A stretch of DNA of 64,000 nucleotides from Patescibacteria group bacterium (GTDB taxonomy: Bacteria > Patescibacteriota > Patescibacteriia > UBA10025 > JAHIVO01), in the NCBI GenBank assembly GCA_043808365.1, contig JAZDEZ010000015.1, forward strand, positions 20,683-84,682. The letters are read 5' to 3'. Position numbers and translations under genes: made by a program. Position 1 is the stretch's first letter. Every line of letters starts with the position of its first letter. Below the pieces are notes generated by a model that saw only the letters and a program-made list of their open reading frames with translations, was not told the DNA's origin and did not search any database. Positions 16,573 to 33,191 of this stretch are shown here, piece by piece.

Positions 16573-16802
16573 GCGCACCCAGGGACGGGTGCGCTTGGCA
16601 GAAACAAAAAATCCTATCTCACACTTCTCGCTTCCCGCTTCCCGACTCGCATCCCACATCTGAAACTCACCTCCAACCTCCAACTTCCTATCTAATATCT
16701 CCCCCTACGGGGGATCTCCCGAAGGGAGATAATAACTTACACCCAACAACCAATCTCCTCGCTAACCACTAATTACTAGTGGCTAACAACTAGCGACTAA
16801 CA
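16573..16802 (+). repeat. Copy A of a ~190-230-nt pyrimidine-rich intergenic element: a 5' GC hairpin, CCUCC-containing repeats, and a stop-codon-rich tail.
   Basis: GCGCACCCAGGGACGGGTGCGC hairpin, then ATCCTATCTCACAC...CACCTCCAACCTCCAACTTCC...ACTAATTACTAGTGGCTAACAACTAGC. It aligns with the copy at 28520-28688. Confidence 0.5.
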
Positions 16803-16817
16803 TGCTATACTTACCCC

Positions 16818-17534
16818 ATGCAACCACGTTTTTACCTGCCAACGGTCAGCATTGAAAACGAAACGCTCGTCATATCTGACCGTGATATCATCCGGCAAAT
16901 AACGAATATCTTACGGCTGAAAAAGGACGACGTCTTTTTCGTTTTTACTCCTCAAACTGAATACGAGCTGGCCCTAAAAGCAGTCTCTAATTCAATAGTG
17001 GAAGCGACTGTCATCGAACAGCGTCAGGCTGAACGGGAACCGGCTAAAAAACTCATCTTGTACCAGTCTTTGCTGAAAAAAGACAAGTTCGAGTGGATTC
17101 TGCAAAAAGGCGTGGAGCTCGGCATCCATGCCTTCGTGCCGGTCGTCAGCGACAACAGCATCGCCCGCGACATTTCTGACAACAAGCTGGTACGCTACCA
17201 TAAAATCATAACTGAAGCGACCGAACAATGCGGCGGCGTGCATATCGCTCCATTGGATCCCCTGATGAAGTTTTCCGATGCCGTTCTGCGTGTCGCGCAA
17301 CAGACCGGCCAAAAGCTCATTGCCTGGGAAGGACAGACGAAAAATTTGCTTCCAAAAGTCCTCGACGCCTCTGCTAAGGTTTTCCACCTGTTTATCGGGC
17401 CGGAAGGCGGTTATTCTCCGGCAGAAATAGAGTTTGCCGAACAAAATGGGCTAACCACGGTCAATCTGGGCAAGCGCATTCTCCGGGCAGAAACCGCTTC
17501 GATTGCCGCGGCCGCGCTTATTCTTCTGAATTAG
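16818..17534 (+). CDS. rsmE: 16S rRNA (uracil1498-N3)-methyltransferase RsmE (SPOUT family).
   Basis: 238 aa. The C-terminal SPOUT knot motifs are present: HLFIGPEGGYSPAEIEF...LGKRILRAETAS. Confidence 0.75.
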   Translation: MQPRFYLPTVSIENETLVISDRDIIRQITNILRLKKDDVFFVFTPQTEYELALKAVSNSIVEATVIEQRQAEREPAKKLILYQSLLKKDKFEWILQKGVELGIHAFVPVVSDNSIARDISDNKLVRYHKIITEATEQCGGVHIAPLDPLMKFSDAVLRVAQQTGQKLIAWEGQTKNLLPKVLDASAKVFHLFIGPEGGYSPAEIEFAEQNGLTTVNLGKRILRAETASIAAAALILLN

Positions 17535-17582
17535 CCGGCAATATGGTATACTATATTCGGATTTTTATTAATAAAAAATAAT

Positions 17583-18398
17583 ATGTTTGAAAACGTTTCT
17601 CGTCCGCAAAACCAACCGCCCCAAGCTCCAGAGCAACCGAAAAATTGGGGTCCCTGGAAGCCAGTAGACCCGACCAGAAGGCCGGCTGTCCCGCCTAGAC
17701 GCGAGGCTGGCCCGATGCCGCCGCCGCCCATGGGCTCGGAACCGGTTGTCCCGCCGCCCCAAAATCCACTGGTGAATCTGCCGAGCCACCTCAACGTCCC
17801 CGGTGCCGGCACGCCCGAACCGCCGCGTCATGGCCGGAGCAAGATGATCATGATCGGCCTGATGATTTTCGCCGTCATTATTGTCCTGATTGCCGCGGCT
17901 ATTTTCCTGTTCAGCAAATATAGCAATAAGAACGCCAATACTAACGATAATACGAATGCTGTTAGTAATGAAAATGCAAACATTGCCCTCAACACTAACC
18001 TGAATTCCAATCTGAATGCTAACAGAAACTTGAATAGCCTCTTTAACACAAACGCGGCAAACGCCAATGCCGCGTCTAACCTTAATTCACTTTTCAACGT
18101 GAACACGTCGGGCAACGCGAATGTAAATGCTAACGTGAATACAAACGTGAATTCCGTCGGTAATATAAATGGCAACGGGAACACAAACACCACCAACCTA
18201 AATAACACTAACATTGCCGCCTGCAATGTGAATGGACAGCCGGACAGCGACTGCGACGCGCTCAGTGATGTCCAAGAAGAAATCTACGGCACAGACCGCA
18301 GGAATCCTGACACTGACGGCGACGGGTACTTAGACGGCGCTGAAGTGAAGAGCGGCTTTAACCCGAATGTTGGTGGTGGCGCCAAGCTCAATCCATAA
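17583..18398 (+). CDS. Hypothetical membrane protein with a Pro-rich N-terminus, one TM segment, a long Asn-rich low-complexity region, and a C-terminal Ca-binding-like (TSP3-type) motif.
   Basis: MIMIGLMIFAVIIVLIAAAIFLF is the TM segment. ~150 aa are of the N-x-N composition. The C-terminal motif is DTDGDGYLDGAEV. Confidence 0.5.
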   Translation: MFENVSRPQNQPPQAPEQPKNWGPWKPVDPTRRPAVPPRREAGPMPPPPMGSEPVVPPPQNPLVNLPSHLNVPGAGTPEPPRHGRSKMIMIGLMIFAVIIVLIAAAIFLFSKYSNKNANTNDNTNAVSNENANIALNTNLNSNLNANRNLNSLFNTNAANANAASNLNSLFNVNTSGNANVNANVNTNVNSVGNINGNGNTNTTNLNNTNIAACNVNGQPDSDCDALSDVQEEIYGTDRRNPDTDGDGYLDGAEVKSGFNPNVGGGAKLNP

Positions 18399-18426
18399 CC
18401 AAAACCTAAAAAAAACCATAAAAAAA

Positions 18427-18455
18427 CTCCGTCACCCGACGGGGTTTTTTATTTT
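18427..18455. terminator. Bidirectional rho-independent terminator between two convergent genes.
   Basis: CCGTC-ACCC-GACGG stem, flanked by A7 upstream and T6ATTTT downstream. Confidence 0.55.
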
Positions 18456-18984
18456 ATATTTTTATCAAATCGCGCAACGCTTTGGTTAGCCACCGGAAAC
18501 TTAACCTAGACCAAGGAATTGAATTTTTCCTGAACCACCGATATCCGTTTATATCATCCATCGGTTTCAATGCTCCGGACCGGATTTTAGCCAGGTAAAT
18601 AAGATTCAAGGTGTTTAAATCATACCCATGCCGATATGTATCCATATACACGCCGAGTAATCGGACTTCCTTGAGAGTGATGCCCAGCTCCTCCTTGATT
18701 TCCCGAAATAAACCACGCCGTGGCTCTTCACCGTCCTCCAGAAAGCCGCCTGGCGAGTCCCACCAGCCTTTTTTCGGATTCACTGCCCGTTTAACCAGTA
18801 AAATACGATTCTGAACATCCTCCAGAAATACAGATACCGTTGGCTTGGAATTCTGGTAAAAATCATACCTGCATCGAGAACAGCGGAGCATCCCTTTTTT
18901 CTGGAATCTGGAATACTTCGCCCCGCAATGCGGGCAGAATTTAAAATATGCATTAGCGCTGTAATTCATATGCGCGCAAGACAT
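18454..18984 (-). CDS. NUDIX hydrolase with an N-terminal zinc ribbon.
   Basis: CPHCG...CSRCRY zinc ribbon. Nudix box GGFLEDGEEPRRGLFREIKEELG. Confidence 0.7.
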   Translation of the reverse strand: MSCAHMNYSANAYFKFCPHCGAKYSRFQKKGMLRCSRCRYDFYQNSKPTVSVFLEDVQNRILLVKRAVNPKKGWWDSPGGFLEDGEEPRRGLFREIKEELGITLKEVRLLGVYMDTYRHGYDLNTLNLIYLAKIRSGALKPMDDINGYRWFRKNSIPWSRLSFRWLTKALRDLIKI

Positions 18985-19795
18985 TTTGTAAAAGCATAGA
19001 CACGGTCATCGGCCCGACTCCTCCTGGCACGGGGGTTATCCAGCCAGCAACGCCGGAAACGTCAGTAAAATCAACGTCACCGACCGCTTTGCCGTTGAGC
19101 CGATTATAGCCGACATCAATGACTATGGCGCCAGGCTTGACCATTTCTTTTTTCACGAACCTCGGCCGGCCGATCGCCACGATAATGACGTCAGCCGCCA
19201 GCGTCTGCTCCGCTAACTTAATATCGTCCGGCGACACATGGTCCGCTCGGCTTCCTAGTTTTTCCATCAGTAATGCGATTGGTTGGTAAAAAATCTTGCT
19301 GTTAGAAATGATGACAGTTTTTTTCTCCGTTAAGCTTTCTCCGGTGCTTCGCGCCAGCTCTACGATCCCGGCCGCCAAACCCGGCACCAGGCCCGGCCGG
19401 CCTTGCTGCTGCGACTGGATGTTTTCCGGATGAAAACCGTCTACGTCTTTAATTGGTTTTATGGCGCTGATGATTTTGTCCGTGCCGTACCCTTTTGGCA
19501 AAGGGAGCTGCACGAGGATGCCATTGATGTCTTTACGACCGTTCAATTCTGAAATCTTTTCCATGACCTTCGGCTCGCCGATGTTCTCCGGATACACGTA
19601 TTTTTCGATTACAATACCAACGTCCTGCGCCGCCTGCTCTTTCAGCCCAACGTAAATATACGAGGCCGGATCGCTGCCAATTAAAATAATCGCCAAGCCC
19701 GGCTTGTTGGAAAGCTTGGCCACGCTCCGTTTAACGTCTTGCAAGACGCCATCCGCTATTTTTTTGCCATCAATGATGTGTGCTCTTTGAAACAT
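18953..19795 (-). CDS. folD: Bifunctional methylenetetrahydrofolate dehydrogenase/cyclohydrolase.
   Basis: 280 aa with the FolD pattern (IILIGSDPASYIYVGLK..., GRPRFV, PVPGGVGPMT). It overlaps the Nudix gene by 32 nt. Confidence 0.85.
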   Translation of the reverse strand: MFQRAHIIDGKKIADGVLQDVKRSVAKLSNKPGLAIILIGSDPASYIYVGLKEQAAQDVGIVIEKYVYPENIGEPKVMEKISELNGRKDINGILVQLPLPKGYGTDKIISAIKPIKDVDGFHPENIQSQQQGRPGLVPGLAAGIVELARSTGESLTEKKTVIISNSKIFYQPIALLMEKLGSRADHVSPDDIKLAEQTLAADVIIVAIGRPRFVKKEMVKPGAIVIDVGYNRLNGKAVGDVDFTDVSGVAGWITPVPGGVGPMTVSMLLQNVLRAYELQR

Positions 19796-19860
19796 ACGCT
19801 AATCATATCATAAATCCGCCCGTCCAACACAGGTATGGCCATGTGCGCCGCCCCACCCTT

Positions 19861-19942
19861 GTCATTGCGAGGAGTGGAACGACGAAGCAATCTGGCCTGC
19901 AAGACTATCCCGAACAGAGCCGAGGAATCCCTCAGTAGATAC
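19861..19942 (+). repeat. Copy R2 of the GTCATTGCGAGGAG MITE-like repeat.
   Basis: GTCATTGCGAGGAGTGGAACGACGAAGCAATCT ... GAATCCCTCAGTAGATAC. Confidence 0.4.
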
Positions 19943-20125
19943 TATAAAACCCTTCACTGAGCTCGGGATGAAGGCTGTGCCCGCGGCGGTATGAATAAAT
20001 GCACGCGCAACCACGGCGGGTTGCGCTCCGAGGGTAATAAAAATCGGGGCGGCGCTATTGCCATCCTTCTGAAACCAACCTCTGACTTCCTGACTAATTT
20101 CTAACAACTAAAAACTAACTACTAA

Positions 20126-21424
20126 TTACTTATTACTAATTACTGAACCATACACCGGATGCTTTTCTGTGAGTTCTTTTACTTTTTTCCTCACCTCTTC
20201 TTTGGCTGATTCTTTTTGTGGGTTATGGATAGTCTCGGCAATCACGTCTGCCACGACTTTCATGTCTTCTTCCGTAAAACCGCGAGTGGTCAATGCCGGC
20301 GTGCCCAACCGGATGCCAGACGGGTCCATCGGCTTACGCGGGTCGAATGGCACGGTATTCTTATTGACCGTAATCCCCACTTCATCCAGTAGGGTCTCAG
20401 CTTCCTGGCCGGTTATGTTCTTGTTGGTTAAATCAACTAATAATAAATGGTTGTCCGTGCCGCCGGTGATCAGCTTGAAATCATGCGCCAAAAGCTGTTC
20501 GGCCAGCGCCTTGGCATTTTTGACAATTTGATGGCCGTACAGCTGAAAAGCCTTGGTTGACGCTTCTTTCAGCGCTACGGCAATGGCCGCGGTCTGATGG
20601 TTATGCGGCCCGCCTTGCAAGCCCGGGAATACTGCCCGGTCAATGAGTTCGGCTAAATTCCACTTTGACCCCGCGTGATATTTTTCCTTCAAACGATCCT
20701 CTTTTTTCGGGCATAAAATCATCGCTCCCCGCGGCCCGCGCAATGTCTTGTGCGTGGTCGTCATAATGACATCCGCATGATCAACGGGCGACTGGTGCGC
20801 GCCGGCAATCACCAACCCGGCCACATGGGAAATATCAGTCAGTAAATACGCTCCCACCTCGCGTGCTATCCGGCCGAACGCGGCAAAATCAAATTCACGC
20901 GGATACGCCGTCGCGCCGGCGATAATCATTTTCGGCCGCTCCTTTTTTGCCAGTTCCAGCACCTCTTCATAATTTATCAGTTGGGTTTCCTTGTCGACGC
21001 CATACGGCACTGAATGGTAGTACCGTCCGGAAAAATTCACTTTCCACCCGTGCGTCAGATGCCCGCCATGCGGCAGGCTCATGCCCATGACTTTGTCCCC
21101 CGGCTCCAGCAACGCGAAATACACCGCCTGGTTGGCCGGCGAACCGGAGTACGGCTGGACATTGGCGTGCTCCACGCCGAATAATTGCTTGGCGCGGTCA
21201 CGGGCGATATTCTCAATCACGTCAATAAATTCATTTCCGCCGTAATAGCGTTTGCCGGGATACCCTTCGGAATACTTGTTCGTGCCAATCCCGCCCAAAG
21301 CTTCGAGCACAGCCTTGGACACATAGTTTTCCGAAGGGATCATTTCCAAGCCGTCCTGCTGTCGTTTGAGTTCTTGGCTAATGGCCGAGAAAATCTCCGG
21401 ATCTTCTTTTTGTAATGGTTCCAT
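20126..21424 (-). CDS. glyA: Serine hydroxymethyltransferase.
   Basis: 432 aa. The PLP-lysine motif TTTHKTLRGPRG and HLTHG are present. Confidence 0.9.
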   Translation of the reverse strand: MEPLQKEDPEIFSAISQELKRQQDGLEMIPSENYVSKAVLEALGGIGTNKYSEGYPGKRYYGGNEFIDVIENIARDRAKQLFGVEHANVQPYSGSPANQAVYFALLEPGDKVMGMSLPHGGHLTHGWKVNFSGRYYHSVPYGVDKETQLINYEEVLELAKKERPKMIIAGATAYPREFDFAAFGRIAREVGAYLLTDISHVAGLVIAGAHQSPVDHADVIMTTTHKTLRGPRGAMILCPKKEDRLKEKYHAGSKWNLAELIDRAVFPGLQGGPHNHQTAAIAVALKEASTKAFQLYGHQIVKNAKALAEQLLAHDFKLITGGTDNHLLLVDLTNKNITGQEAETLLDEVGITVNKNTVPFDPRKPMDPSGIRLGTPALTTRGFTEEDMKVVADVIAETIHNPQKESAKEEVRKKVKELTEKHPVYGSVISNK

Positions 21425-21467
21425 ACCTGCATTGTACTGGAAAAATGGCCGGATGGCAAAAATGCTC

Positions 21468-21496
21468 TTGACATGATCTAATGTTTACTGTACAAT
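21468..21496 (+). promoter_or_regulatory. Near-consensus sigma70 promoter driving the retron locus, divergent from glyA.
   Basis: TTGACA, 17-nt spacer, TACAAT. Confidence 0.5.
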
Positions 21497-21502
21497 ACGG
21501 GT

Positions 21503-21778
21503 TGCCAAATTACGTGGCTATGGCGATTCGCCATATTTGATGGTTTTTGAATCTCGAAAGAACTTTTTCAACTCAAAGAAATACCTCCTCTATGCGCGTC
21601 TATCCGCGTCCCTAGCATAGCCTAGGGGTTACTGTTTTCCGCACACAAGGTACAGATTGTAATTGGTACTTTACTGAAATAAGGCTGAAATTACTGTTTA
21701 TCAGTTATAGATAAATTTTTTCTAAAAGGTCGGGGATGACACTCATCCAAAAAACCATTAAAGAAAGGAGGCACAACA
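21503..21778 (+). ncRNA. Candidate retron non-coding RNA (msr/msd) region. Its boundaries are not defined.
   Basis: ~280 nt with no ORF, lying between a strong promoter and the retron-type RT gene. Several stem-loops are present (ATGGCGA-T-TCGCCAT, CCCTAG-CATAGC-CTAGGG, ACTG...CAGT). I could not identify unambiguous a1/a2 repeats by eye. Confidence 0.3.
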
Positions 21779-21985
21779 ATGAAAAAGAAATATTCGGGAA
21801 GAAGGGTAATTTCCACTCTTTCGCTGCGTTACAGTAGGTCCGTTAACTCCTCTGACTCAAATTTAGGCGCACTGCGACAGTTCATAAATGGATGTAAAAA
21901 ACTGTGGAAAATCATATCAACCCTACCTTTTTATCAATTAACTCGCCCGCTAATCACGGGCGAGGTTTTAATACAACAAATTTAA
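21779..21985 (+). CDS. Small basic hypothetical protein (68 aa) overlapping the RT start in another frame.
   Basis: Best SD in the locus (AAAGAAAGGAGGCACAACA-ATG). No recognisable domain. It may instead be non-coding msd sequence. Confidence 0.3.
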   Translation: MKKKYSGRRVISTLSLRYSRSVNSSDSNLGALRQFINGCKKLWKIISTLPFYQLTRPLITGEVLIQQI

Positions 21986-22890
21986 AATTAAAAAACTTAT
22001 CTGATCTCGCCAAATTAATAAATACTCCTGTCTGGTTTATAAATAAATTGATCCAAACAAGACAAAAACGATATAACTTTTGGAATTACCCCAAAAAAAG
22101 TGGCGGTATTAGAACTTTGTCGAGACCAGATGCTGAATTACGGTTTGTCCAAGAAAAGATATATCAAAATATTCTCCGTTTTGTACCTCTTCCTGAATAC
22201 ATTCACTCACAAATAGGCCATTCCCATGTACAACACGCAGTTAGCCATCAAGGTAAACCGCTGGTTTTACTTTTTGATATTGCCGACTTTTTCCCAAGCA
22301 TTAGTACCAGAATGGTAAAAAACGCATTAACCCATGCGGGATTTACTGAAATTGTCGCAAAAAAAATAGCTAACCTGTGCACATTATCGAATAAAAGTAC
22401 ATCGCATGGATTTCTCCCTCAAGGAACCTCAACCAGTCCAGCATTGGCAACACTAGTGGCGACATCGCTTGATCATCGTCTATGGAAACTGAGTTCTAAA
22501 AATAATTGGATCTATACCCGTTTTGCTGATGATATCGCAATTTCAGGAGGTCTAGGCCTAAGACGAGCAAAAAAACTAATACTCAATATTATCAACAGTT
22601 CCAATTTCAAGGTAAGGGAGTCAAAAACTGAAGAAATAATCCCCGGACGCCGTAATAAAATAGTAGGGCTGCAACTTTATGGAAAAAATATTACGCCGCC
22701 AAGAGAATATTACAAACTTTTACGATCTATGATCCACCATCTTCAAACCAATAAAATACGTGGAAAAGCCAGACTGAAATTAAGAAAAAGTATTCAATCA
22801 AGGCTTTCATACGGTCTTTACGTTGAAAAAATAAGCAACACAAAACAAGGAAAGTTTTTTCGGCTTGCCCAAGCAATAACTATCGCTTAA
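21904..22890 (+). CDS. Retron-type reverse transcriptase (GTG start).
   Basis: RT motifs 1-2 YPKKSGGIRTL, motif A LLFDIADFFPSI, motif B' LPQGTSTSPALATL, motif C YTRFADDIAI. The thumb region RRNKIVGLQLYGKNITPPREYYKLLRSMIHHL parallels the retron-RT VTG...IHH region. 328 aa is a typical retron RT length. Confidence 0.8.
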   Translation: MENHINPTFLSINSPANHGRGFNTTNLKLKNLSDLAKLINTPVWFINKLIQTRQKRYNFWNYPKKSGGIRTLSRPDAELRFVQEKIYQNILRFVPLPEYIHSQIGHSHVQHAVSHQGKPLVLLFDIADFFPSISTRMVKNALTHAGFTEIVAKKIANLCTLSNKSTSHGFLPQGTSTSPALATLVATSLDHRLWKLSSKNNWIYTRFADDIAISGGLGLRRAKKLILNIINSSNFKVRESKTEEIIPGRRNKIVGLQLYGKNITPPREYYKLLRSMIHHLQTNKIRGKARLKLRKSIQSRLSYGLYVEKISNTKQGKFFRLAQAITIA

Positions 22891-22891
22891 T

Positions 22892-23416
22892 TTATTTCAC
22901 CTTCGCCCAGAGGTACTCACTGATCAATCTCCCCCGCTTTTTGACCACTTTGCGCATCAGGCCTTCGCGCTTAAAACCGTTCTTTTTTAAAACCTTTTGC
23001 GATGCTCGATTTGGGACAAACGTATACGCGTACACCCGATGAAGTTTGAACTTTTTAAACGCATAGTTAACCACCAGCTTCACTGCCTCTGGGATTATAC
23101 CCTGACCCCAGTATCTCCGTGCCAGCCAATAGCCGATTTCCGCCTTGTGTCGTGGTTCGATATGCGACAAACCGACACACCCGACAATCTCCCTATCCAT
23201 CTCAATGGCAAATTGAATATCTTTGGGTGAGCGCTGACGGTACTGCGGGATTGTCTTGGCAAACCACTTTGTGGCGTCGGACAAACGGTAGGGGTATGGG
23301 ATATGCAATGTGTACCGGTATATTTTGTAGTCGTTAATATTACGGGCTACAGCTGGCGCGTCCGACAGGCGATATGGCCGTAACACAAAACGCTTGGTTT
23401 TGATGACGTAGTTCAT
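22892..23416 (-). CDS. GNAT family N-acetyltransferase (RimJ/RimL-like).
   Basis: RFVLRPYRLSDA..., IVGCVGL, and the acetyl-CoA motif RRYWGQGIIPEAVKLVVNYAF. Confidence 0.75.
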   Translation of the reverse strand: MNYVIKTKRFVLRPYRLSDAPAVARNINDYKIYRYTLHIPYPYRLSDATKWFAKTIPQYRQRSPKDIQFAIEMDREIVGCVGLSHIEPRHKAEIGYWLARRYWGQGIIPEAVKLVVNYAFKKFKLHRVYAYTFVPNRASQKVLKKNGFKREGLMRKVVKKRGRLISEYLWAKVK

Positions 23417-23426
23417 TGGTGGAGTC

Positions 23427-24377
23427 CTATTTTACTAAAAACTTCCTTACCGATTCCAGCTGTCCGGCACTGCCCAGCATCTCGTTCTTATGGACAATGT
23501 ATTTAGCATATTCGGCCATAAACACCTTGCCGGGTTTGCGCAGGTCAAACACTTCCGGATGGTCGCGGAACATTTCCCGGTGCACGCGGCACCACACCAG
23601 CCGTCCGTCCGTATCGATGTTCACCTTGGTCACGCCCATTGCGGCCGCTTTCTTGAACTGCGTCTCATCCACGCCTTTGGCGCCTTTCATAACACCGCCG
23701 GCCGCGTTGATGCGGTCAATCTCGTCCTTCGGCACGGAGCTGGATCCGTGCATGACTAACGGGAAACCGGGTAATAATTTCTCAATGCCTTCGATTACCT
23801 CAAAATGCAGGCCTTGCGTACCGGCGAATTTATAGGCGCCGTGGCTCGTGCCGATGGCGCAGGCTAAGCTGTCGCAGCCGGTCTGGGCGACGAATTCTTT
23901 GGCTTGCACGGGGTCGGTCAATTTCGCATCGCTCTCCGCCACGCTGACATGCTCCTCAACGCCGCCGAGCTGGCCCAATTCCGCCTCAACTGAAATTCCT
24001 TTGGCATGGGCCGCGGCAACGACCCGCTTGGTGGCGGCGACATTGCCGTCAAACGGAAGTGCGGACGCGTCGATCATGACCGAACTGTAAAATCCGCCGG
24101 TAATGCAGTCCAGGCATGCCGCTTCATCGCCATGGTCCAGGTGGACGGCGAAAATCGCTGCTGGAAAAATTTCTTCAGCCGACTTGATCATTGCTTCCAA
24201 TAATCGCTTGTCAGTATATTCCCTAGCGCCTTTGGATATTTGGATAATGAACGGCGCCTGGCTGTCCAAGTTGCCCTGGAACAAGCCCATGATCTGCTCG
24301 GCGTTATTGATGTTATAAGCGCCGACGGCATATTTTTTATATGCGTGCTTAAATAATTTTTCTGTGGCGACGATCAT
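23427..24377 (-). CDS. fba: Class II fructose-bisphosphate aldolase.
   Basis: FIIQISKGAREY, AVHLDHGD, HGSSSVP, and a class II aldolase C-terminus. Confidence 0.85.
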   Translation of the reverse strand: MIVATEKLFKHAYKKYAVGAYNINNAEQIMGLFQGNLDSQAPFIIQISKGAREYTDKRLLEAMIKSAEEIFPAAIFAVHLDHGDEAACLDCITGGFYSSVMIDASALPFDGNVAATKRVVAAAHAKGISVEAELGQLGGVEEHVSVAESDAKLTDPVQAKEFVAQTGCDSLACAIGTSHGAYKFAGTQGLHFEVIEGIEKLLPGFPLVMHGSSSVPKDEIDRINAAGGVMKGAKGVDETQFKKAAAMGVTKVNIDTDGRLVWCRVHREMFRDHPEVFDLRKPGKVFMAEYAKYIVHKNEMLGSAGQLESVRKFLVK

Positions 24378-24400
24378 ATTATTTAATTTAATGGATTATA

Positions 24401-25606: not shown

Positions 25607-25709
25607 ACGTTTTATTTAATTCCTCAAGCGTCAAACAACCATGAAAACATGACATAGAAGTATAGTAATGGTACGGTTTTAACGCCTCTCAGTCAACCGC
25701 CCCCACCAT

Positions 25710-25836: not shown

Positions 25837-25852
25837 ATGGGGCGGTAAGAAT

Positions 25853-25881
25853 TTGACAGCCATCTACAAAAGGTGTAAACT
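25853..25881 (+). promoter_or_regulatory. Sigma70-like promoter.
   Basis: TTGACA, 17-nt spacer, TAAACT. Confidence 0.35.
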
Positions 25882-25887
25882 ACCTCC

Positions 25888-26079: not shown

Positions 26080-26976
26080 ATGAAAAAATCAGTAATAAAA
26101 ATTGGCTCATTATCCATTCCTCAGATAACACTGGGGGGTGGACGGCCTCGGATACTCATTACCGCGGGCATACATGGCGATGAATTCAGCCAGCAGATAG
26201 TTTTGCAACGGCTGCTCGCCGATCCGCCACAGTTACAACGTGGGTCAATCGTTATCCTGCCGCGAGTTAATCCTCTCGGATTGGCAGAAAATACAGAGGT
26301 AAACCCCACTGATGGATTGAATATTAACCGGGTATTCCCGGGTAAAAAAAATTCGCCAAACATCTCGCGGCGTATCGCTAACATGGTGTTCGAACAGGCG
26401 CTCCAAAGCGATACAGTCGTCGATTTGCATAATTTCACCGATCCGGCTCTGCCCCAGATAATCTACGTTGATGCGGGCAAGCGTCAAATCCGCCAACAAT
26501 CACTGCAGTTCTGCCGAATATATGGGTTTCCCCTGGTCTGGAGGATTCGCGCCAACGACCCGGGCATGGATGGCTCCCGCAAAACGCTCATCTTTAATGC
26601 AGTGCGGGCCGGCATACCTGCTATTGGAGTAGAACTGCCGCCGTTGGACGGGCTGACGGAGAAAGAAATAAAAACTGGAGTAACGGGGCTACGTCGGGTT
26701 CTGCAAGTGATGTCTGATTCTGGTAAAAATTTTCAACAACGCCCAATAACCATCATTGACCGTAAAAACGTACGGGCTCAACAGTCCGGCATCTTCGTCC
26801 CCTTGCTGCCAATCGGTGTCTCGGTGAAACCCAGCAGTATTATCGGAAAAATACTCACCTCCGATCTTCAGGAAATGCCAGTCCGCGCTGAATTCAGTGG
26901 GCTGCTGACACGGCTACGGAGAGCGGGGCCCATTAACAAAAAACAACTCATTGGAAATATTGGAATGAAAAAATAA
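26080..26976 (+). CDS. Succinylglutamate-desuccinylase / aspartoacylase (AstE/AspA) family zinc hydrolase.
   Basis: ITAGIHGDEF (Zn ligands), NPLG...DGLNINRVFPG, DLHN. Confidence 0.6.
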   Translation: MKKSVIKIGSLSIPQITLGGGRPRILITAGIHGDEFSQQIVLQRLLADPPQLQRGSIVILPRVNPLGLAENTEVNPTDGLNINRVFPGKKNSPNISRRIANMVFEQALQSDTVVDLHNFTDPALPQIIYVDAGKRQIRQQSLQFCRIYGFPLVWRIRANDPGMDGSRKTLIFNAVRAGIPAIGVELPPLDGLTEKEIKTGVTGLRRVLQVMSDSGKNFQQRPITIIDRKNVRAQQSGIFVPLLPIGVSVKPSSIIGKILTSDLQEMPVRAEFSGLLTRLRRAGPINKKQLIGNIGMKK

Positions 26977-27026
26977 ACAAAAACGTAGTTCCTTAACAAC
27001 CAACTCAACACCGAAGGAGGTTTGCC

Positions 27027-28346
27027 ATGAATGCGCAAACTACACTCGTATCGCCGAATGAACTGAAAGACTCTGCCCTGTCGGTCAAAGCGCGGCTCGA
27101 TGGGTACCAGGTGGGTTTCGGCGAGGACAGGCGATTTATGTCGCTGGTCAGTCCGGCCCCGTACCTGATCTCAACTGACGACCACCAGACGTTGAAAAAG
27201 CGCGGCCACGTGATCCGCCAATGGGTCGAGACGACAAACCGCCTCTACCACGCGTCGCTCACTGATCCGTCGCTATTCTGGCTCCGTGACCTGCTGGAAA
27301 CCGGACTCAACGACGAAATGCGAGCCATCCATCGTCAGCTCCACGCCAAGCAGCCGATGCGCGCCCCGTTCTTCATGCGGATGGACCAGCCGACATTTAC
27401 CTGCGCCGCAGAAGCGCAGACTCCCGGCTCCGGCTGGGGGTACCACGCCGCGCTGGCCACCTGCTACGAGGAATATACCGTCCTCGGAAGATCATTCGTC
27501 GCCAGAGTCGCTCACACATTGCGGGAACTGACGGGTAAGGATCGTCCACGCGTGGTGCACCTGCTGCATAAAGTCGATTATTACGGCACTGAAGCAACAT
27601 TCTTTGCCCAAGCTATCCGAGCCGCTGGCATTGATTTCACTATCAGTGTCAGAACCATTCCTGAAAATATCAAAACCTATGACGTTGTTTTCCGCCACTA
27701 CTTGGAGGAACTCGGTCAATACTCTGGTTGGCAGAATCTGTTGGGACTGTACGATCGCGGCGGCATCGAAATCGAACCTGCTCCTAACATCATCACCGAC
27801 CATAAGATCTCTATGATGCTACCGTTCCATCCGAGGACGTTCATGTATTATTCGGATGCCGTACGCTCCATTTTCCCGGCGACGTACCTGGTCGACCCGT
27901 ACGCTACCTACCAGATGCGCATCAGTAATAACTATGCGCACCCGGTCAGGCTAAGCAACCTGCCAGGCATCCCGCCGAAACAGCGCCGGCTGACGCTGAA
28001 GTACGCAGGCATGGATCCTCAAAAACGCGCCGGCGGGCGGGGAGTGTTCAACCTATCCATGAGCGATGAAGCTGAAATCAATCGGCTCCTCCAGCAGGTC
28101 ATTGATGACACCTACAACGGCATACCATGGCTGCTTCAGGAAATGGTGTTGCGGCGGTATCCGGTTACATACCTATCGGCTGAAGGCGCCATCGCCAACG
28201 ACCAGTGGTACGCCCGCATCAACCCGTTCTATGCCTTTCCGGCATCCGGCGGGAGTGAACTGCTCGGATGCCCCGTGCATTTCCGGAATTTCTGGAAAGT
28301 GCATGGGCAGCCGGACGCGGTGGAAACAATCATGGCAATTGCTTGA
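27027..28346 (+). CDS. Hypothetical protein, possibly a glutathionylspermidine-synthase-like (circularly permuted) ATP-grasp ligase.
   Basis: RMDQPTFTCAAEAQTPGSGWGYHAAL resembles the R-x-D...E-x-N-A-D-T-P motif of GSP-synthetase/YgiC-like ATP-grasp proteins. This is a weak, motif-only call. Confidence 0.35.
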   Translation: MNAQTTLVSPNELKDSALSVKARLDGYQVGFGEDRRFMSLVSPAPYLISTDDHQTLKKRGHVIRQWVETTNRLYHASLTDPSLFWLRDLLETGLNDEMRAIHRQLHAKQPMRAPFFMRMDQPTFTCAAEAQTPGSGWGYHAALATCYEEYTVLGRSFVARVAHTLRELTGKDRPRVVHLLHKVDYYGTEATFFAQAIRAAGIDFTISVRTIPENIKTYDVVFRHYLEELGQYSGWQNLLGLYDRGGIEIEPAPNIITDHKISMMLPFHPRTFMYYSDAVRSIFPATYLVDPYATYQMRISNNYAHPVRLSNLPGIPPKQRRLTLKYAGMDPQKRAGGRGVFNLSMSDEAEINRLLQQVIDDTYNGIPWLLQEMVLRRYPVTYLSAEGAIANDQWYARINPFYAFPASGGSELLGCPVHFRNFWKVHGQPDAVETIMAIA

Positions 28347-28370
28347 TTGTTACACACAAAAAACAGGGCG

Positions 28371-28438
28371 GCAGTAGGACTTAGGAAATAACCACGAAGT
28401 TAGAATCCATTAAGTCCTATTGCTCGCCCTGCCTAAAA
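28371..28438 (+). repeat. Long hairpin (~18-bp stem, ~30-nt loop) after the 27027 gene. It may be a terminator or structured RNA.
   Basis: GGGCGGCAGTAGGACTTA ... TAAGTCCTATTGCTCGCCC inverted repeat with one mismatch. Confidence 0.4.
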
Positions 28439-28519
28439 ACTAAGCTATTCCACTGTTCACGTCAAGTCTAGATAGGCAAAAGGATTTTCCGATGGCGTGC
28501 TTTTTTATTAAAAATAGTC

Positions 28520-28688
28520 GCGCACCCAGAGACAGGTGCGCTCGGAGGATATTCATTATCCTACCTCACCCATCTGAATCCAACATCCAACCACTAACTT
28601 CCTAACCAACTTCTTACCCTCCCCCTTATAGCTCCCATAGCTCTTCTATCCCCACTAACTACTAACCTACTAATGGCTAGCTACTAGC
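28520..28688 (+). repeat. Copy B of the pyrimidine-rich intergenic element. Its tail overlaps the last codons of Elp3.
   Basis: GCGCACCCAGAGACAGGTGCGC hairpin after a T-run, then ATCCTACCTCACCC...CATCCAACCACTAACTTCC...CTAATGGCTAGCTACTAGC, collinear with copy A. Confidence 0.5.
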
Positions 28689-30250
28689 TTCCTCACCATA
28701 TACGTCTTTTCCAACCGGTACCCCAGCTTCCGATAGTACTCACGCACCCCGATTCCTGAAATGACAGCCATTTTTATATAACCTTTTTTCTTCGCGATAC
28801 GTTCTGCTTCAACCAATAACCGCTTGCCAAAACCGATGTGCTGGACTGCTTTTTTCTTCCCGCCGATTGGCATTAGCTCCCCGTACGTATGCAATTCGCG
28901 TATTAACGCAGTCTCATCATCAAACGCACCAATAAAACGTTTTGCCGGAGCTGGCAGCCACAACCGGATAAAGGCGTATAGTTTTTTCTCGTCTTTGCTT
29001 TCAAAACTGATAAAATGCTCCTCGCCTGCTCCAGCCCTATAAACACGCTCTTTCAGTTTTACCTGATTTTGTTTAACGATCTCTTTTCGCGCCTCACGGC
29101 AACGGATGCATTTGCATTTCACCCCACGCTCCTGCAGCAACTGGCGCAAGTTCGTGGTCATGTTGCCAGCCACGATGTCCGGACCGGGAATATCACGGAT
29201 CAAACGGTTGATACGTACATAGGGTGGCATGATGCCTTTTATTTTTATCAGCAACTCCACTAATTGCTTATTGCTATACGGCTTATACCTGCCCTGCTGG
29301 TACCACTGATACAATAAAGAATTTTTCACCACCAAGCAGGGATATATCTTCAGCATATCCGGCTGGAACCGTGAATCGCCGAAAACTATTTTGAATGTAT
29401 CAAAATCTTTCTTCGGCGTGGCGCCAGGCAAACCGGGCATCAGATGATACGTGAACTTGAATCCGAACGCACGCAACAATGACGTAGCACGAGCAATATT
29501 ATCCAGCGTGTCATCCCGTTTGACCAGATCTAAAATGTCCTGATGCAGCGTCTGCACCCCGATCTGCACGTGCGTGCATCCCAGCTCGCGCATCCGCCAC
29601 AGCTCGGCCGAGGTCACGTGGTCAGGCCGCGTTTCCAAACTCAAACCGATAATCCGATGCTTTGCAGTTTCATTGATCTTCTGCGCCTTTTGAAGTGTCT
29701 TTGCCGTAGACTGTAGTCGGCAGTCCGTCGCCTCATTCGCCGCGTCAAAACACCGCTTAATAAACCATGTCTGGTAATCGTGCGGGTAATGCGACCACGT
29801 CCCTCCCAAGACAATCAGCTCAATCTTATCCGCGCTATGGCCATTGGCCTCCAGCGTGGCAATGCGCATTTTTACCTGCTGATACGGGTCGAACTTCAGG
29901 CTCAACCCCCTTTGCGCGGCCGGTTCGGATGACAGGTAGCTTTTCGGCATCCTGGCTTCTGTCGGGCAGTATACGCATCGGCCCGGGCACGGATAGGGTT
30001 TTGTTAATACGGTGACTGGCGCCACGCCGGACAGCGTCCTGATTTCGCGCTTGCGCAATAGCCGCAACAGCCGCTGGTCGGGGTTTTTTATTCCCTGCTT
30101 TCGGTACTGCCCCAGTATCTCGGAATTGGGTATAATGGTGGTGCGGTATTTAGTGGCCAACAAACGCTTGGCCTGACGGACCGCGGCAACCGTCTCTGGC
30201 TTGGCTCGTACGAAATCACGCGTATATTTTTGCAAAGTTTTCTTATTCAT
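28670..30250 (-). CDS. Elp3-family protein (radical SAM + GNAT), the bacterial homolog of the tRNA U34 carboxymethyltransferase.
   Basis: Radical-SAM cluster CPGRCVYCP, and a C-terminal GNAT domain (GYIKMAVISGIGVREYYRKLGYRL). 526 aa. Confidence 0.8.
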   Translation of the reverse strand: MNKKTLQKYTRDFVRAKPETVAAVRQAKRLLATKYRTTIIPNSEILGQYRKQGIKNPDQRLLRLLRKREIRTLSGVAPVTVLTKPYPCPGRCVYCPTEARMPKSYLSSEPAAQRGLSLKFDPYQQVKMRIATLEANGHSADKIELIVLGGTWSHYPHDYQTWFIKRCFDAANEATDCRLQSTAKTLQKAQKINETAKHRIIGLSLETRPDHVTSAELWRMRELGCTHVQIGVQTLHQDILDLVKRDDTLDNIARATSLLRAFGFKFTYHLMPGLPGATPKKDFDTFKIVFGDSRFQPDMLKIYPCLVVKNSLLYQWYQQGRYKPYSNKQLVELLIKIKGIMPPYVRINRLIRDIPGPDIVAGNMTTNLRQLLQERGVKCKCIRCREARKEIVKQNQVKLKERVYRAGAGEEHFISFESKDEKKLYAFIRLWLPAPAKRFIGAFDDETALIRELHTYGELMPIGGKKKAVQHIGFGKRLLVEAERIAKKKGYIKMAVISGIGVREYYRKLGYRLEKTYMVRKLVASH

Positions 30251-30970
30251 ATGGACGAACGTTTTGCGGAAAAATTAATGGCTATGAACGCGACGACCTA
30301 TCAGGCTATTGCTGACCAGTTTTCTGCCACCCGAAAATTCATCTGGGAAGATTTCAAGCCTTTGATGGAATATATAGCTATTGGCGAGAAAGTGCTCGAT
30401 GCCGGGTGCGGTAATGGCCGGCTCTATGAGTTATTGAAAGAAAAACACGTAGAGTATGCCGGCCTGGATTTGAGCGGCGAACTTATCGCCATCGCGAAGC
30501 GTCAATATCCCGAGTTAAAATTCATTGCTGGTAACATTCTGGATCTGCCGTTCCCGCCCGGTTCGTTTGACGTTGTTTTTTGCATTGCCACGCTTCATCA
30601 CCTGCCCACAGAGAAACTGCGCGCACAGGCCATCCGACAATTCTACAAAGTCCTGCGTCCAGATGGACGGCTGGTCATGCTAAACTGGAACCTGCTGGCC
30701 TCGAATTGGTGGCTGATCCATGCAAAAATACTTTGGCAGCGAATCATTGGCAAAGGGCGTATTTCATTCCCTGACGTCATCAAACTCTGGAAAAATGAAT
30801 CCGGGGCCGTAGTCGGCCGTCGCTATATTCATGGATTCCGCACATCGGAACTGTCAACACTATTGGACCATAATGGCTTCTCACAGGTACAGCAATATTA
30901 CACTAAAAAAGGCCATCCGGCTACGCGGCGGACCGGCTACAACCTTATTACTATAGCCAAAAAGGCTTGA
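30251..30970 (+). CDS. Class I SAM-dependent methyltransferase (Trm9/UbiE-like motif I).
   Basis: VLDAGCGNGRLYELL motif I and the post-I acidic GLDLS. Start taken at ATG 30251, which directly abuts the complement of the Elp3 start codon. The listed ORF begins at 30230. Confidence 0.6.
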   Translation: MDERFAEKLMAMNATTYQAIADQFSATRKFIWEDFKPLMEYIAIGEKVLDAGCGNGRLYELLKEKHVEYAGLDLSGELIAIAKRQYPELKFIAGNILDLPFPPGSFDVVFCIATLHHLPTEKLRAQAIRQFYKVLRPDGRLVMLNWNLLASNWWLIHAKILWQRIIGKGRISFPDVIKLWKNESGAVVGRRYIHGFRTSELSTLLDHNGFSQVQQYYTKKGHPATRRTGYNLITIAKKA

Positions 30971-31062
30971 TGCTTCGCCGCGAGGCGAGCCGAAGGGTTG
31001 AAAATGAACGAAAAAAATGATACCGTATATTCATATTATGCGCTAATTTTTAATATCTATTT

Positions 31063-32409
31063 ATGAACATCAACGCGAAAATCTTCAAGTCATACGACAT
31101 CCGCGGCATCTACCCCGCCGACCTGAACGAAGATACCGCTTACCTGGTCGGCCAGGCATTTGCCCAGCTGACCAAGGCTAAAAAAGTGGTGGTCGGACGG
31201 GATATGCGCCTGGGTTCGCCAACGCTCACTGAAAAGCTTGTCGCCGGCCTCATGAGCCAAGGCGTTGACGTGGATAATATCGGGCAAGTGCCGATTGACG
31301 CCGTATATTTCGCCACGGGCAAGTTTGACTATGACGGTGGTATTATGACTACGGCTTCGCATAACCCCAAAGAATACAACGGCTTCAAGATGGTTATCAA
31401 GAAAGGCAAAAGTTTGCAGTGGATCAGGGGCATTGAACTGTACGAGTTCATGTGCGACAAAACTTTCTCCGCGGCATCCCAGCCTGGCTCAACGAAAGAC
31501 AGGGATATTATTGAGGATTATCTCCAGCATATCTTGTCTTTCGTTGACGTAAAAAAAATAAAGCCCTTCAACATCGTGGTCGACGCCGGCAATGGTATGG
31601 CCGGCAAAATAATGCCGTTGCTCTTTAAGCGCCTGCCCTGCCGCCTGATCCCCCTCAACTTCGAGCTGGATGGGAACTTTCCCGGCCATCCCTCAAATCC
31701 ATTGCTGCCGGAATCACAGGTCCAGATCAAAAAAAAGGTGGTTGAAGCTAAGGCTGATTTCGGCATTATCATGGACGGTGACACGGACCGGCTGTTCTTC
31801 ATAACCGAACAGGGCGAATTCATCCGGGCCGATTCCACGCTTCTTATCCTGGCAAAATTTTTCATCGAGAAAAATCCCGGCGCTGGCATTGCTTACAATG
31901 TCATTTGCAGCAAGGCCGTGCCCGAGCGGATCAGAGAGTGGGGCGGCCGGCCGATCCGCAGTCCCGTGGGTTTTGCCAACCTGGCCGAAGCCATGCGGCG
32001 CGAGAATGGCGATATGAGCGGCGAACTCTCGGCCCATTACGCCTTTAAAGACAACTACTACGCCGATTCCGGTTTCATCGCTTTCGTCATCCTTTTAAGC
32101 TTGATTTCAGAGCATAATAAGCCGCTCTCGGCCATGACTGCCGGACTGAACCCATACGCCAAGGCGGATGAAGTCAATATTGAAGTGAATAACATTCCTA
32201 AAATAATCGCCATGGTCAAGGCCAAATACCAAGATGGCAAGCAGGACGAAATGGACGGCGTCACGATCGAATATCAGGACTGGTGGGTCAATGTCCGGCC
32301 GTCAAACACCGAACCGCTCCTGCGAATAACGCTTGAGGGGAATACCAAAAAAATAATGCTGCAAAGACTGGCAGAGGTCCAGGACTTCATTAAAGGAGTG
32401 GCCAAATGA
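31063..32409 (+). CDS. Phosphomannomutase/phosphoglucomutase (alpha-D-phosphohexomutase).
   Basis: Active-site loop TASHNPKEYNGFK, Mg site DGDTDR, sugar-binding GELSAHY. Confidence 0.8.
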   Translation: MNINAKIFKSYDIRGIYPADLNEDTAYLVGQAFAQLTKAKKVVVGRDMRLGSPTLTEKLVAGLMSQGVDVDNIGQVPIDAVYFATGKFDYDGGIMTTASHNPKEYNGFKMVIKKGKSLQWIRGIELYEFMCDKTFSAASQPGSTKDRDIIEDYLQHILSFVDVKKIKPFNIVVDAGNGMAGKIMPLLFKRLPCRLIPLNFELDGNFPGHPSNPLLPESQVQIKKKVVEAKADFGIIMDGDTDRLFFITEQGEFIRADSTLLILAKFFIEKNPGAGIAYNVICSKAVPERIREWGGRPIRSPVGFANLAEAMRRENGDMSGELSAHYAFKDNYYADSGFIAFVILLSLISEHNKPLSAMTAGLNPYAKADEVNIEVNNIPKIIAMVKAKYQDGKQDEMDGVTIEYQDWWVNVRPSNTEPLLRITLEGNTKKIMLQRLAEVQDFIKGVAK

Positions 32410-33071
32410 TTAAGGCGATCGCTTTCGACCTCGACGGCGTCCTGATTGACTCCGAGCCGCTTTGGGAACGATCGACATGGGAGTATGTAAAAAATAAATG
32501 CGGAACGACGCACCGGCGCCAATTCCGGTCACGCGACCTTGACCGGGAAGTCCGCGGCCGTACCCAGCGGTACATCAGCACGTATCTCAAGCGACACCTA
32601 TCGTTACCCGACTCGCCCCAGCAAATCGTAAAGGACAGGCTTCAGATGCTTTTTGACCTTTTTAACAAACGCCTGACAATGGCCCCGGGCGGCCTGGCAC
32701 TCTTGAAATTATTGAAAAAGAGTAAATACCCAGTAATTCTCGCCTCGTCATCCCCGCGACGGGTAATTGACTTCGTCATGCGTCGTTTCCTGTTAAAAAA
32801 ATATTTTGTAAAAATTATATCTGGGGATGACATGAAATACAGCAAGCCGCATCCTTGGGTGTATAAGCAAGCCGCGAAAATCTTGCACGTCAAACCTGCC
32901 GAAATGCTAGTCATTGAGGACTCGATCAGCGGCGTCCAGGCCGGTCTGAAATCCGGGGCAAGAGTCATTGCCATGAAAAAGCCTTACACGCCCAAAAAAT
33001 ATACCAAAGACGCGATACGCGTGATTAAAAGCCTCAATCAACTCTCGCTTGAACAAATTCAACGCCTTTAA
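32406..33071 (+). CDS. HAD-superfamily hydrolase (beta-phosphoglucomutase-like subfamily).
   Basis: Motif I AIAFDLDGVLIDSE, and the later motifs (ASSS, K...EDSISG). It overlaps the previous gene by ATGA. Confidence 0.7.
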   Translation: MIKAIAFDLDGVLIDSEPLWERSTWEYVKNKCGTTHRRQFRSRDLDREVRGRTQRYISTYLKRHLSLPDSPQQIVKDRLQMLFDLFNKRLTMAPGGLALLKLLKKSKYPVILASSSPRRVIDFVMRRFLLKKYFVKIISGDDMKYSKPHPWVYKQAAKILHVKPAEMLVIEDSISGVQAGLKSGARVIAMKKPYTPKKYTKDAIRVIKSLNQLSLEQIQRL

Positions 33072-33188
33072 CAATTCCAACATCTTCAACGTCATAAACA
33101 GTTTCAACAATTTGAACGGTTTCAACATCTTCAACATTTTCTTCCCACTAACTACTAATGGCTAACTTACTAATTACTAACTAACTAG
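33072..33188 (+). repeat. Partial copy C of the pyrimidine-rich element (CAACATCTTCAAC repeats plus stop-rich tail).
   Basis: TCCAACATCTTCAACGTCAT...TTCAACATCTTCAAC...CCCACTAACTACTAATGGCTAACTTACTAATTACTAACTAACTAGCC, ending immediately before the murI ATG. Confidence 0.35.
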
Positions 33189-33191
33189 CCC

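Follow-up and report, generated by a model that had tools for sequence, protein, structure and literature searches.

A 64-kb stretch of a Patescibacteria (Candidate Phyla Radiation, CPR) metagenome-assembled genome (MAG), referred to here as the window and representing the part of this genome that was examined, carries a repeated non-coding element in the gaps between several of its genes. The element consists of a GC-rich hairpin followed by a G-poor tract and a stop-codon-rich tail; hairpin and tract belong to two known kinds of repeat DNA, and the feature is real and non-random. The window copies (c1 to c4) and their parts are listed below, with L-numbers (L001, L002, L010, and so on) denoting loci from other Patescibacteria MAGs.

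16567..16802, + strand: c1, a full mosaic (repeat family D4) between a 203-aa open reading frame (ORF) and rsmE; homology with c2 starts at ATAGYC, 6 nt ahead of the hairpin
16573..16594, no strand: c1 palindrome of the repetitive extragenic palindromic (REP)-like kind, GCGCACCCAGGGACGGGTGCGC, with an 8-bp stem; the same 22-mer occurs in L002 and L019
16607..16705, + strand: c1 G-poor heptamer arrays with units CTTCCCG and ACCTCCA, including TCTGAA..CCAAC and ACTTCCTATCTAAT; Tandem Repeats Finder (TRF) period 7 at 16624-16644 and 16669-16688, lag-7 z = 5.4, also called by an array detector
16701..16730, no strand: two small GC hairpins, CCCCCTACGGGGG and ATCTCCCGAAGGGAGAT, read from the sequence; present in c1 only, not in c2 or c3
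16760..16802, + strand: c1 CTAA-rich tail with the 12-mer CTAGTGGCTAAC (16776-16787); TRF period 14, lag-7 z = 5.0
19999..20148, + strand: c3, a full copy between folD and the 3′ end of glyA, with an orthologous copy in L002
20005..20026, no strand: c3 REP-like palindrome, variant GCGCAACCACGGCGGGTTGCGC, with a stem C-G pair changed to A-T; the same 22-mer occurs in L116 and L119
20068..20148, + strand: c3 TCTGAAACCAAC, then ~10 heptamer units with consensus ACTAATT; TRF 20093-20144, period 7, 7.4 copies; lag-7 z = 4.4, lag-14 z = 4.7
28514..28690, + strand: c2, between a 439-aa ORF and the convergent Elp3 gene
28520..28541, no strand: c2 REP-like palindrome GCGCACCCAGAGACAGGTGCGC, followed on the minus strand by GACTATTTTT; a scan calls a terminator-like site at 28541-28520 for Elp3
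28542..28569, + strand: c2 spacer with a small hairpin, TCGGAGGATAttcatTATCCTACCTCAC, matching the TCGGGGAATATTATCATTCCTCCCA spacer of inverted doublets in L010 and L011
28570..28690, + strand: c2 G-poor tract and tail; period 8 at 28654-28673, lag-7 z = 2.7, the weakest of the copies
33052..33144, + strand: c4 part 1, a 9-nt tandem array, AACANNTTC, of ~10 units (repeat family D1); TRF period 9 (8 copies) and also period 27, lag-9 z = 6.4
33145..33190, + strand: c4 part 2, the tail common to c1 and c2 (CCACTAACTACTAATGGCTAAC...ACTAGC); TRF period 7 (ACTAATT) from 33147

Copies in the window and their gene context

The same blocks follow one another in the same order in c1 and c2, namely the hairpin GCGCACCCAG(R)GAC(R)GGTGCGC, ATCCTAYCTCAC, CATCTGAA, CCAAC..AACTTCCTA, CCCCCT and the tail CACTAAC..CTARTGGCTARC..ACTAGC. 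Local alignments of the copies scored z = 5-23 above composition-preserving shuffles, the full copies reaching 12, the 5′ module 23 and the tract 7, and none of 500 shuffles scored as high. The original prediction had proposed three collinear copies; c1 and c2 are indeed homologous, but the third, at 33072-33188, shares the tail alone, having neither hairpin nor middle module, and the full copy c3 had been missed. Beyond c1 to c4, no further copies were found elsewhere in the 64-kb window.

As predicted, the + strand is strongly depleted in G, with 6 G (and 50 C) in the 130 nt at 28546-28675 of c2 and 5 G in the 73 nt at 16638-16710 of c1. The window as a whole has a GC content of ~50% with C exceeding G on the + strand throughout, and rpoB, rpoC, recA, and ftsK are encoded on its minus strand; judged from the negative GC skew and the minus-strand location of these genes, the + strand is probably the lagging strand. 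Several CACCUCC/CCUCC motifs had been described as common to the copies, a description that does not hold: CCTCC occurs two, one, zero, and zero times in c1, c2, c3, and c4, always on the G-poor strand, and in c1, which has CACCTCC and ACCTCC, it is the repeated heptamer unit ACCTCCA.

Every copy carries stop codons in all three frames of both strands, which bears out another of the earlier claims. The tails run into the 3′ ends of Elp3, as had been noted, and likewise of glyA, supplying both with stop codons plus 3-7 extra codons. Within the c3 array lie the glyA stop codon (20126-20128, minus strand) and the last seven glyA codons, while the c2 12-mer CTAATGGCTAGC (28670-28681) holds the Elp3 stop codon (28670-28672, minus strand). 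In c4, the 9-nt array starts within the last codons of the HAD gene, from whose 3′ coding sequence it was seeded, and the copy stops 1 nt short of the ATG of murI, which lacks a Shine-Dalgarno (SD) sequence. In the HAD frame, the 9-nt array stays open for 28 codons beyond the TAA stop.

The placement of the copies directly after terminators, also part of the original prediction, holds loosely at best: c1 begins ~130 nt past a hairpin and T-run recognised by eye, the T-run ahead of c2 lacks an intact stem, there is no terminator before c4, and a terminator scan called none of them. A promoter scan found no promoter-like site upstream of any copy on the + strand. The c1 tail itself overlaps the promoter-like site of rsmE, CTAACA-17-TATACT (16783-16811), and rsmE seems to be leaderless, with TGcTATACT 6 nt ahead of its ATG. 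Between the terminator of the 203-aa ORF and c1 are two perfect palindromes, GGGAAATTCCC (16477-16487) and AACATTCTTAAGAATGTT (16502-16519), that could be operator-like sites. When window 15764-16375 is compared with L001 14629-14933, the window has an insertion of ~1.2 kb between the ychF-side terminator and rsmE, made up of the 203-aa ORF (no Pfam match) with its promoter and terminator, together with c1.

An SD sequence of at least 4 nt was found for ~14 of the 53 long window ORFs, making this an SD-poor genome, and A/T-rich, G-poor leaders precede many window genes. A heliorhodopsin gene at 6262-7056 (Pfam E = 5e-100) has a leader that is both SD-less and G-poor.

REP-like palindromes and heptamer arrays

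The first part of the element is a 22-nt GC palindrome, GCGCAMCC-loop-GGKTGCGC, with an 8-bp stem, a 6-nt loop and a following TCGG; with its flanks, the consensus reads (A/G)TC-GCGCAMCC-6-nt loop-GGKTGCGC-TCGGRG, after which comes a short AT-rich spacer hairpin. In a survey with the pattern GCGCAMCCASRGMSRGKTGCGC, for which one representative genome per species was used and in which counts are lower bounds, the hairpin was found at at least 13 loci (14 sites) in at least nine other Patescibacteria MAGs, most of the remaining matches being chance ones in GC-rich phyla. The search for more copies called for by the original prediction extended the family both within the window (c3) and to other Patescibacteria. 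Local scans yielded 24 oriented hairpin instances, mostly intergenic and often just past the end of a gene; all three window hairpins and most of those in relatives lie outside ORFs of at least 90 aa. There are three hairpins in the 64 kb of the window and at least two to four sites in each of several MAGs, as counted in short loci rather than whole genomes. Metagenomes searched with the pattern CCAACYWCYRACTTCCTRWCYAAY, which is too strict, returned only the L002 contig and two unrelated matches, and scans of viral sequences gave nothing or chance matches in AT-rich phages. No description of REP-like repeats in Patescibacteria/CPR was found in the literature searched.

The stem is paired in 96.7% of cells across 19 distinct sequences, and three of its pairs show compensatory changes (C-G to A-U or G-C), a result reached by none of 500 shuffles; covariation, proposed earlier as a check, is seen here in a statistic that is inflated because the sequences were gathered with palindrome-favouring patterns. 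Members of the family are often doubled in inverted orientation, with pairs separated by ~25 nt in L010, L011, and L119, and a related palindrome, GCGCAGGC-CGCTGT-GCCTGCGC, forms adjacent pairs in L015, L021, and L093. The window hairpins are all singlets, lacking the doublet arrangement by which REP doublets forming hairpins (REPINs) are recognised. An A-run is seen by eye on the 5′ side of ~8 of 22 oriented hairpins in relatives (about one-third; e.g., L015, L019, and L079), and a T-run therefore follows the hairpin on the other strand.

In several respects the hairpin is like the REP sequences, bacterial interspersed mosaic elements (BIMEs) and REPINs of Proteobacteria: an imperfect palindrome, short and GC-rich, that has several subtypes and is flanked by a conserved tetranucleotide; an extragenic location, often just past gene 3′ ends; inverted doublets, here in the relatives; a stem maintained by compensatory change; mosaics with other motifs; and at times a T-run, such that the hairpin can serve as a terminator or 3′ stabiliser. 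It differs in having no sequence similarity to proteobacterial REPs, in the singlet state of the window copies, in the recurrence of the same 22-mer variants across many species of one phylum, and, unlike classical BIMEs, in being joined to a heptamer array. Nor was a REP-associated tyrosine transposase (RAYT) found: a Pfam scan of 49 window ORFs revealed no Y1_Tnp/RAYT or other transposase domain and a single reverse transcriptase. No terminal inverted repeats join the ends of any copy, and no target-site duplications were seen when filled and empty sites were compared (L001 and L145 versus L002 and the window), on which grounds a miniature inverted-repeat transposable element (MITE) as defined by structure was rejected.

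The BOX elements of pneumococcus are modular boxA-boxB-boxC intergenic mosaics whose modules are not heptamer arrays. The element described here is modular too, with hairpin, spacer, array, and tail in variable combinations, a likeness of architecture.

The second part of the element, comprising the G-poor tract and the stop-rich tail, is made of degenerate heptanucleotide tandem arrays, with TRF period 7 inside c1, c3, and c4 (arrays from 16624, 16669, 16775 with period 14, 20093, and 33147). Lag-7 autocorrelation reaches z = 4.4-6.2 in c1, c3, and the L002 and L125 copies, compared with the lower value given above for c2. The units include CTTCCCG, ACCTCCA, ACTTCCT, AATTTCT, AATTTCC, ACTAACT, and ACTAATT. 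TRF also reports period-7 arrays in unrelated intergenic DNA at 59464, 59531, 60357, 60412, 60437, and 61507. Across the window there are 14 lag-7 arrays versus 2.7 in block shuffles, and 10 of the 14 fall in intergenic DNA, which makes up 16% of the window; lags other than 7 that are indivisible by three give 0-2 intergenic arrays each, and the other enriched lags are multiples of three, inside genes.

Because seven is not a multiple of three and the units contain TAA or TAG, with TAG or TTA in their complements, stops arise in all frames of both strands; this is an arithmetic result of the unit length and content, not a sign of design. The original prediction had recognised neither this 7-nt period, from which the conspicuous properties it described stem, nor the REP-like character of the hairpin. 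With the frames closed, arrays therefore reach only a few codons into genes and end at gene boundaries. Long AT-rich hairpins whose two arms both consist of these unit types occur in L125, upstream of rsmE, and at two places in the window:

59455..59560, no strand: heptamer-arm hairpin with AATTTCT units and the complement ATTAGAA, and the TTCCTRA..TAATTTCTAA motif in common with the element (repeat family I1); folding z = -3.1 to -3.5; found by TRF and lag-7 autocorrelation
60351..60475, no strand: heptamer-arm hairpin with CCAAT-type and ATTGG-type arms, between two minus-strand genes; folding z = -4.7 (minus strand)

Both lie between minus-strand genes, adjoin tRNA-Arg and resemble the hairpins of the cyanobacterial short tandemly repeated repetitive (STRR) sequences.

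Mixed heptamer arrays that are intergenic, differ between close relatives by 7-nt steps and, owing to their stop codons, overlap gene ends only briefly have been described before (PMC4679880), and heptamers are reported to be the commonest class of long simple repeat in most genomes surveyed, with polymerase slippage proposed as their source (literature summarised in PMC4679880). Cyanobacterial STRR sequences have 7-bp units and form hairpins between genes (PMC2670836). With the TAACTGA-type arrays of Beggiatoaceae, Cyanobacteria, and Bacteroidetes (PMC4679880) and with STRR sequences (PMC2670836), the present arrays share the 7-nt period, the mixed degenerate units, the intergenic location, and the stop-limited overlap with genes; in all of them some arrays sit right upstream of SD-less starts and others between stop codons, presence varies among close relatives, with indels that are in unit steps in the known arrays and may be so here, and paired arrays can form intergenic hairpins, as at the two sites just listed. 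The arrays here are not members of the TAACTGA family because their units differ: no tandem TAACTGA occurs in the window, which has one and three single occurrences on its two strands, and the arrays here are closed in both orientations, whereas the TAACTGA reverse complement is open. They differ further from both groups in being short and much decayed, in that an ordered series of unlike units is itself dispersed, and in their host, a small Patescibacteria genome.

Several other assignments were considered and rejected. A structured RNA was not indicated, since folding is confined to the 5′ hairpin and, in c2, one further small hairpin, with z = -0.7 to -1.8 except for -3.7 on the + strand of c2. 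Protein coding was dismissed, as the + strand ORF at 16515-16772 and the minus-strand mini-ORFs of c1 behind GGAGG are not conserved in c2 and c3; there is no conserved ORF, no frame is kept among the copies, and all six frames are closed. A known RNA family was equally unsupported, with no Rfam match at gathering thresholds in the whole window and nothing relevant at E <= 5 in 15300-33300. A TIGR or CRISPR-like array does not fit in either period or architecture. An orientation bias (four of four copies G-poor on the + strand) is broken by ATTGG- and TTAG-type + strand arrays at 59531-59554 and 60412-60472, and four copies are too few to establish one.

Turnover among relatives and competing explanations

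The best matches of GlyA and Elp3 are in MAGs labelled Patescibacteria group bacterium, with identities up to 94% (GlyA) and 100% (Elp3); farther homologues come from Uhrbacteria, Kerfeldbacteria, and related groups, and all homologues belong to Patescibacteria MAGs. The corresponding sites in these relatives are as follows.

L001 (GlyA 90%): no element at the glyA, Elp3, and rsmE sites; all three orthologous copies missing
L143, L145, L146 (Elp3 86%, 84%, and 84%; GlyA ~90% in L145): 13-21 kb of synteny free of REP-like hairpins and CTAA-type arrays
L143 6334-6337 and L145 6317-6320: ATGA overlap of HAD and murI; at this junction the window carries the 120-nt c4
glyA 3′ end, L001: nothing downstream
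glyA 3′ end, L145: CCAAC-GA-CTAATA, ~1-2 units, after a different hairpin
glyA 3′ end, L002 (GlyA 94%): REP, then 7 units
glyA 3′ end, window: a different REP variant, then ~10 units
glyA 3′ end, L123: REP with another loop, no array
glyA 3′ end, L124/L125: other repeats followed by an array of six NNATTAC units

At the glyA array, the window and L002 differ by a net 25 nt, which is not a whole number of 7-nt units. Modules are also found apart from one another: the tail alone in c4, hairpins alone in L123 and L019, and arrays alone in L125 and at 59455-60475. The absence of the elements from relatives, together with the differing glyA 3′ ends, therefore indicates that they are recent, lineage-specific, and dispensable. 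DNA past the stop codon of a gene is a dumping ground for several repeat families.

Taken together, these observations moderately favour a view of the element as a mosaic that joins two independent kinds of non-coding repeat, REP-like palindromes and heptamer arrays, that act as dispersed, fast-turnover, and dispensable filler between genes; the two kinds sit together because both are tolerated only there. Under this model, arrays would lengthen and shorten by unit steps through replication slippage, with c4 visibly seeded from adjoining coding sequence, and composite pieces would be copied to new intergenic sites by recombination or gene conversion, or by a transposase acting in trans. All-frame stops confine the arrays to gene boundaries, as where glyA and Elp3 receive their stop codons, and the copies are young, peculiar to the lineage and dispensable. 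Any function would be secondary: on the minus strand the GC hairpin may provide convergent transcripts with a 3′ hairpin or terminator, and the unstructured G-poor tract may serve as a neutral spacer or as an SD-less leader, as for murI. Of the options offered in the original prediction, another mobile element comes nearest to this, in that the copies are dispersed, lineage-specific, and missing at orthologous sites of close relatives.

The elements show that even Patescibacteria genomes of ~1 Mb carry fast-turnover REP-like palindromes, common across species, and STRR-like heptamer arrays. Such elements lengthen annotated ORFs (the public Elp3 annotation, 526 aa, includes tail-encoded codons, and glyA gains seven codons), can disrupt assemblies, and could be misread as regulatory RNAs. 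The ATGA overlap of HAD and murI implies translational coupling in L143 and L145; repeat DNA can thus separate a coupled pair without evident harm.

A number of observations weigh against the mosaic model, at least as a matter of pure neutral decay. Copy c3, its L002 orthologue, and a non-orthologous L125 site upstream of rsmE are 87-89% identical over a series of unlike heptamers in set order, CCAACYT-CTRACTT-CCTRACT-AATWTCT-AACAACT.... Third codon positions of glyA are 57.5% identical between the window and L002; at that identity, 90 +/- 5 identical positions would be expected between c3 and its L002 counterpart, and block shuffles run through the same gap-tolerant aligner give 94 +/- 3, compared with the 110 that are shared. 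Such an excess is not predicted by neutral decay alone and points to constraint or to recent homogenisation. The 12-mer CTARTGGCTARC is exact in c1, c2, and c4 (16776-16787, 28670-28681, and 33155-33166), where 0.5 occurrences would be expected even with one mismatch allowed; a one-mismatch version lies at the Elp3 3′ end of L145 (~11545-11556). At the orthologous glyA site, the lineages carry unlike hairpin variants, each of which nevertheless recurs exactly in other genomes. The hairpin variants, heptamer series, and 12-mer would all fit copying or homogenisation among dispersed repeats, or alternatively some constraint. In addition, the window has no transposase and the copies no terminal inverted repeats or target-site duplications, so that the copying mechanism is one we infer; the covariation count for the hairpin is biased upwards by the manner of collection; and this genome was viewed over 64 kb only.

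Doubtful, but the best placed of the alternatives, is a transcription insulator, in which convergent transcripts from the minus strand (Elp3, glyA) would be terminated or stabilised by the GC hairpin, and Rho would load on the C-rich tract as on a rut site, halting + strand read-through before it enters the next gene in antisense. Sites of the rut type are characteristically C-rich, G-poor, and unstructured, and the c2 tract, which is predicted to be unstructured, has that composition over a length exceeding ~70 nt. The c2 hairpin together with GACTATTTTT scores as terminator-like on the minus strand, the A-runs upstream of about one-third of the relatives' hairpins point the same way, and convergent or tandem gene ends flank c2 and c3. 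However, c1 and c4 face no convergent gene, c4 has no hairpin, and c1, c3, and the L002 copy lack a good T-run after theirs; the Pfam scan found no rho gene among the window ORFs, and relatives handle the same gene junctions without the element.

A little more doubtful is a platform acting in cis on RNA or single-stranded DNA, with the G-poor heptamers as selected sites, in a 7-nt register, for an OB-fold protein (S1 or cold-shock) that would aid SD-independent translation or transcript organisation. For the TAACTGA repeats of Beggiatoaceae, protein binding has been proposed along similar lines for arrays directly upstream of SD-less starts, with S1, Csp, and CsrA as candidates (MacGregor 2015, PMC4679880). 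By analogy, the SD-poor genome, the predicted lack of structure in the tract, a heptamer series better kept than synonymous sites, and the positions of c4 ahead of the SD-less murI start and of c1 at the rsmE promoter and start might be read in this way. Yet for c2 and c3 the facing sequence is the 3′ end of a convergent gene, not a start codon, and c1 lies upstream of an rsmE transcript to which, being probably leaderless, it would not belong. Relatives express the same genes without arrays, murI being coupled through the ATGA overlap in L143 and L145, and many SD-less genes of the window have no array.

Movement of the whole as a non-autonomous transposable element (MITE or REPIN) by a dedicated transposase from another part of the genome, such as a Y1 enzyme of the RAYT type recognising the hairpin and its TCGG flank, seems unlikely. 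It would account for the junctions that dispersed copies share, from ATAGYC through TCTGAA..CCAAC, for variable presence at orthologous sites, for the REPIN-like inverted doublets and conserved flanking tetranucleotide in relatives, and for a hairpin that at the orthologous glyA site has been swapped for other canonical variants instead of drifting. It sits poorly with filled and empty sites that reveal neither terminal inverted repeats nor target duplications, with modules that also occur separately, with window copies that are singlets and not doublets, and with a window free of transposase genes. A true REPIN/RAYT system, or arrays that are protein-binding platforms, would be the first for the phylum; neither is required by the data.

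Just as unlikely is that the heptamer tracts are a selected marking of gene boundaries in SD-poor Patescibacteria. An OB-fold protein (cold-shock-domain or S1, with about one fold per 7 nt) would keep the RNA single-stranded, stop stray ribosomes in six frames, and permit SD-independent initiation or insulation, and the GC palindrome would be the matching 3′-end or uptake/recognition signal across the phylum. The ordered heptamer series kept above the synonymous level and the exact 12-mer would, in that case, be footprints of selection.

The small RNA of the original prediction, 3′-untranslated-region-derived or independent, whose CCUCC would mimic the 16S anti-SD sequence and titrate SD-containing mRNAs, is close to refuted, because beyond the CACCTCC and ACCTCC of c1 (there a repeated array unit) and the single CCTCC of c2, all on the G-poor strand, the motif is missing from two of the four copies and from those of L002 and L125, and most genes of this genome have no SD, no promoter-like site lies upstream, nothing folds except the hairpin, and no Rfam family matches.

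Other features of the window

Additional repeats are present in the same intergenic DNA. A dispersed family, TGTCATTGCGAGGAG...GAAGCAATCTC, occurs at 7934-7963, 19848-19905, 25697-25766, 48495-48550, 48875-48956, and 51122-51155, as well as downstream of glyA in L124/L125; it is found in both orientations, often as inverted pairs, and is probably the intergenic element that the original prediction had numbered first. A separate family is represented by a 62-nt pair at 25781-25842 and 51172-51233.

The 516-nt gap at 13743-14258 contains four + strand CCTCC(TT) motifs, including GGATCACCTCCTTTC, which equals the 3′ end of 16S rRNA; these may be SDs for minus-strand ORFs of ~20-60 aa. The region 21425-22890 combines a strong promoter-like site (21468-21496) with the gene for a 328-aa reverse transcriptase (RVT_1) further downstream, and the ~400 nt of non-coding DNA between them have 10- and 20-nt tandem repeats and a hairpin, a layout that looks retron-like.

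Adjoining ychF, the + strand segment 15344-15594 has a promoter-like site (TTGACA-16-TACCAT), ~200 nt conserved in the relative L001 (14690-14900, minus strand), and a strong terminator at 15566-15594. A two-sequence consensus fold with L001 has 42 pairs, three of them compensatory, and the segment, which has no Rfam match at E <= 5, is a candidate for an unannotated small RNA.

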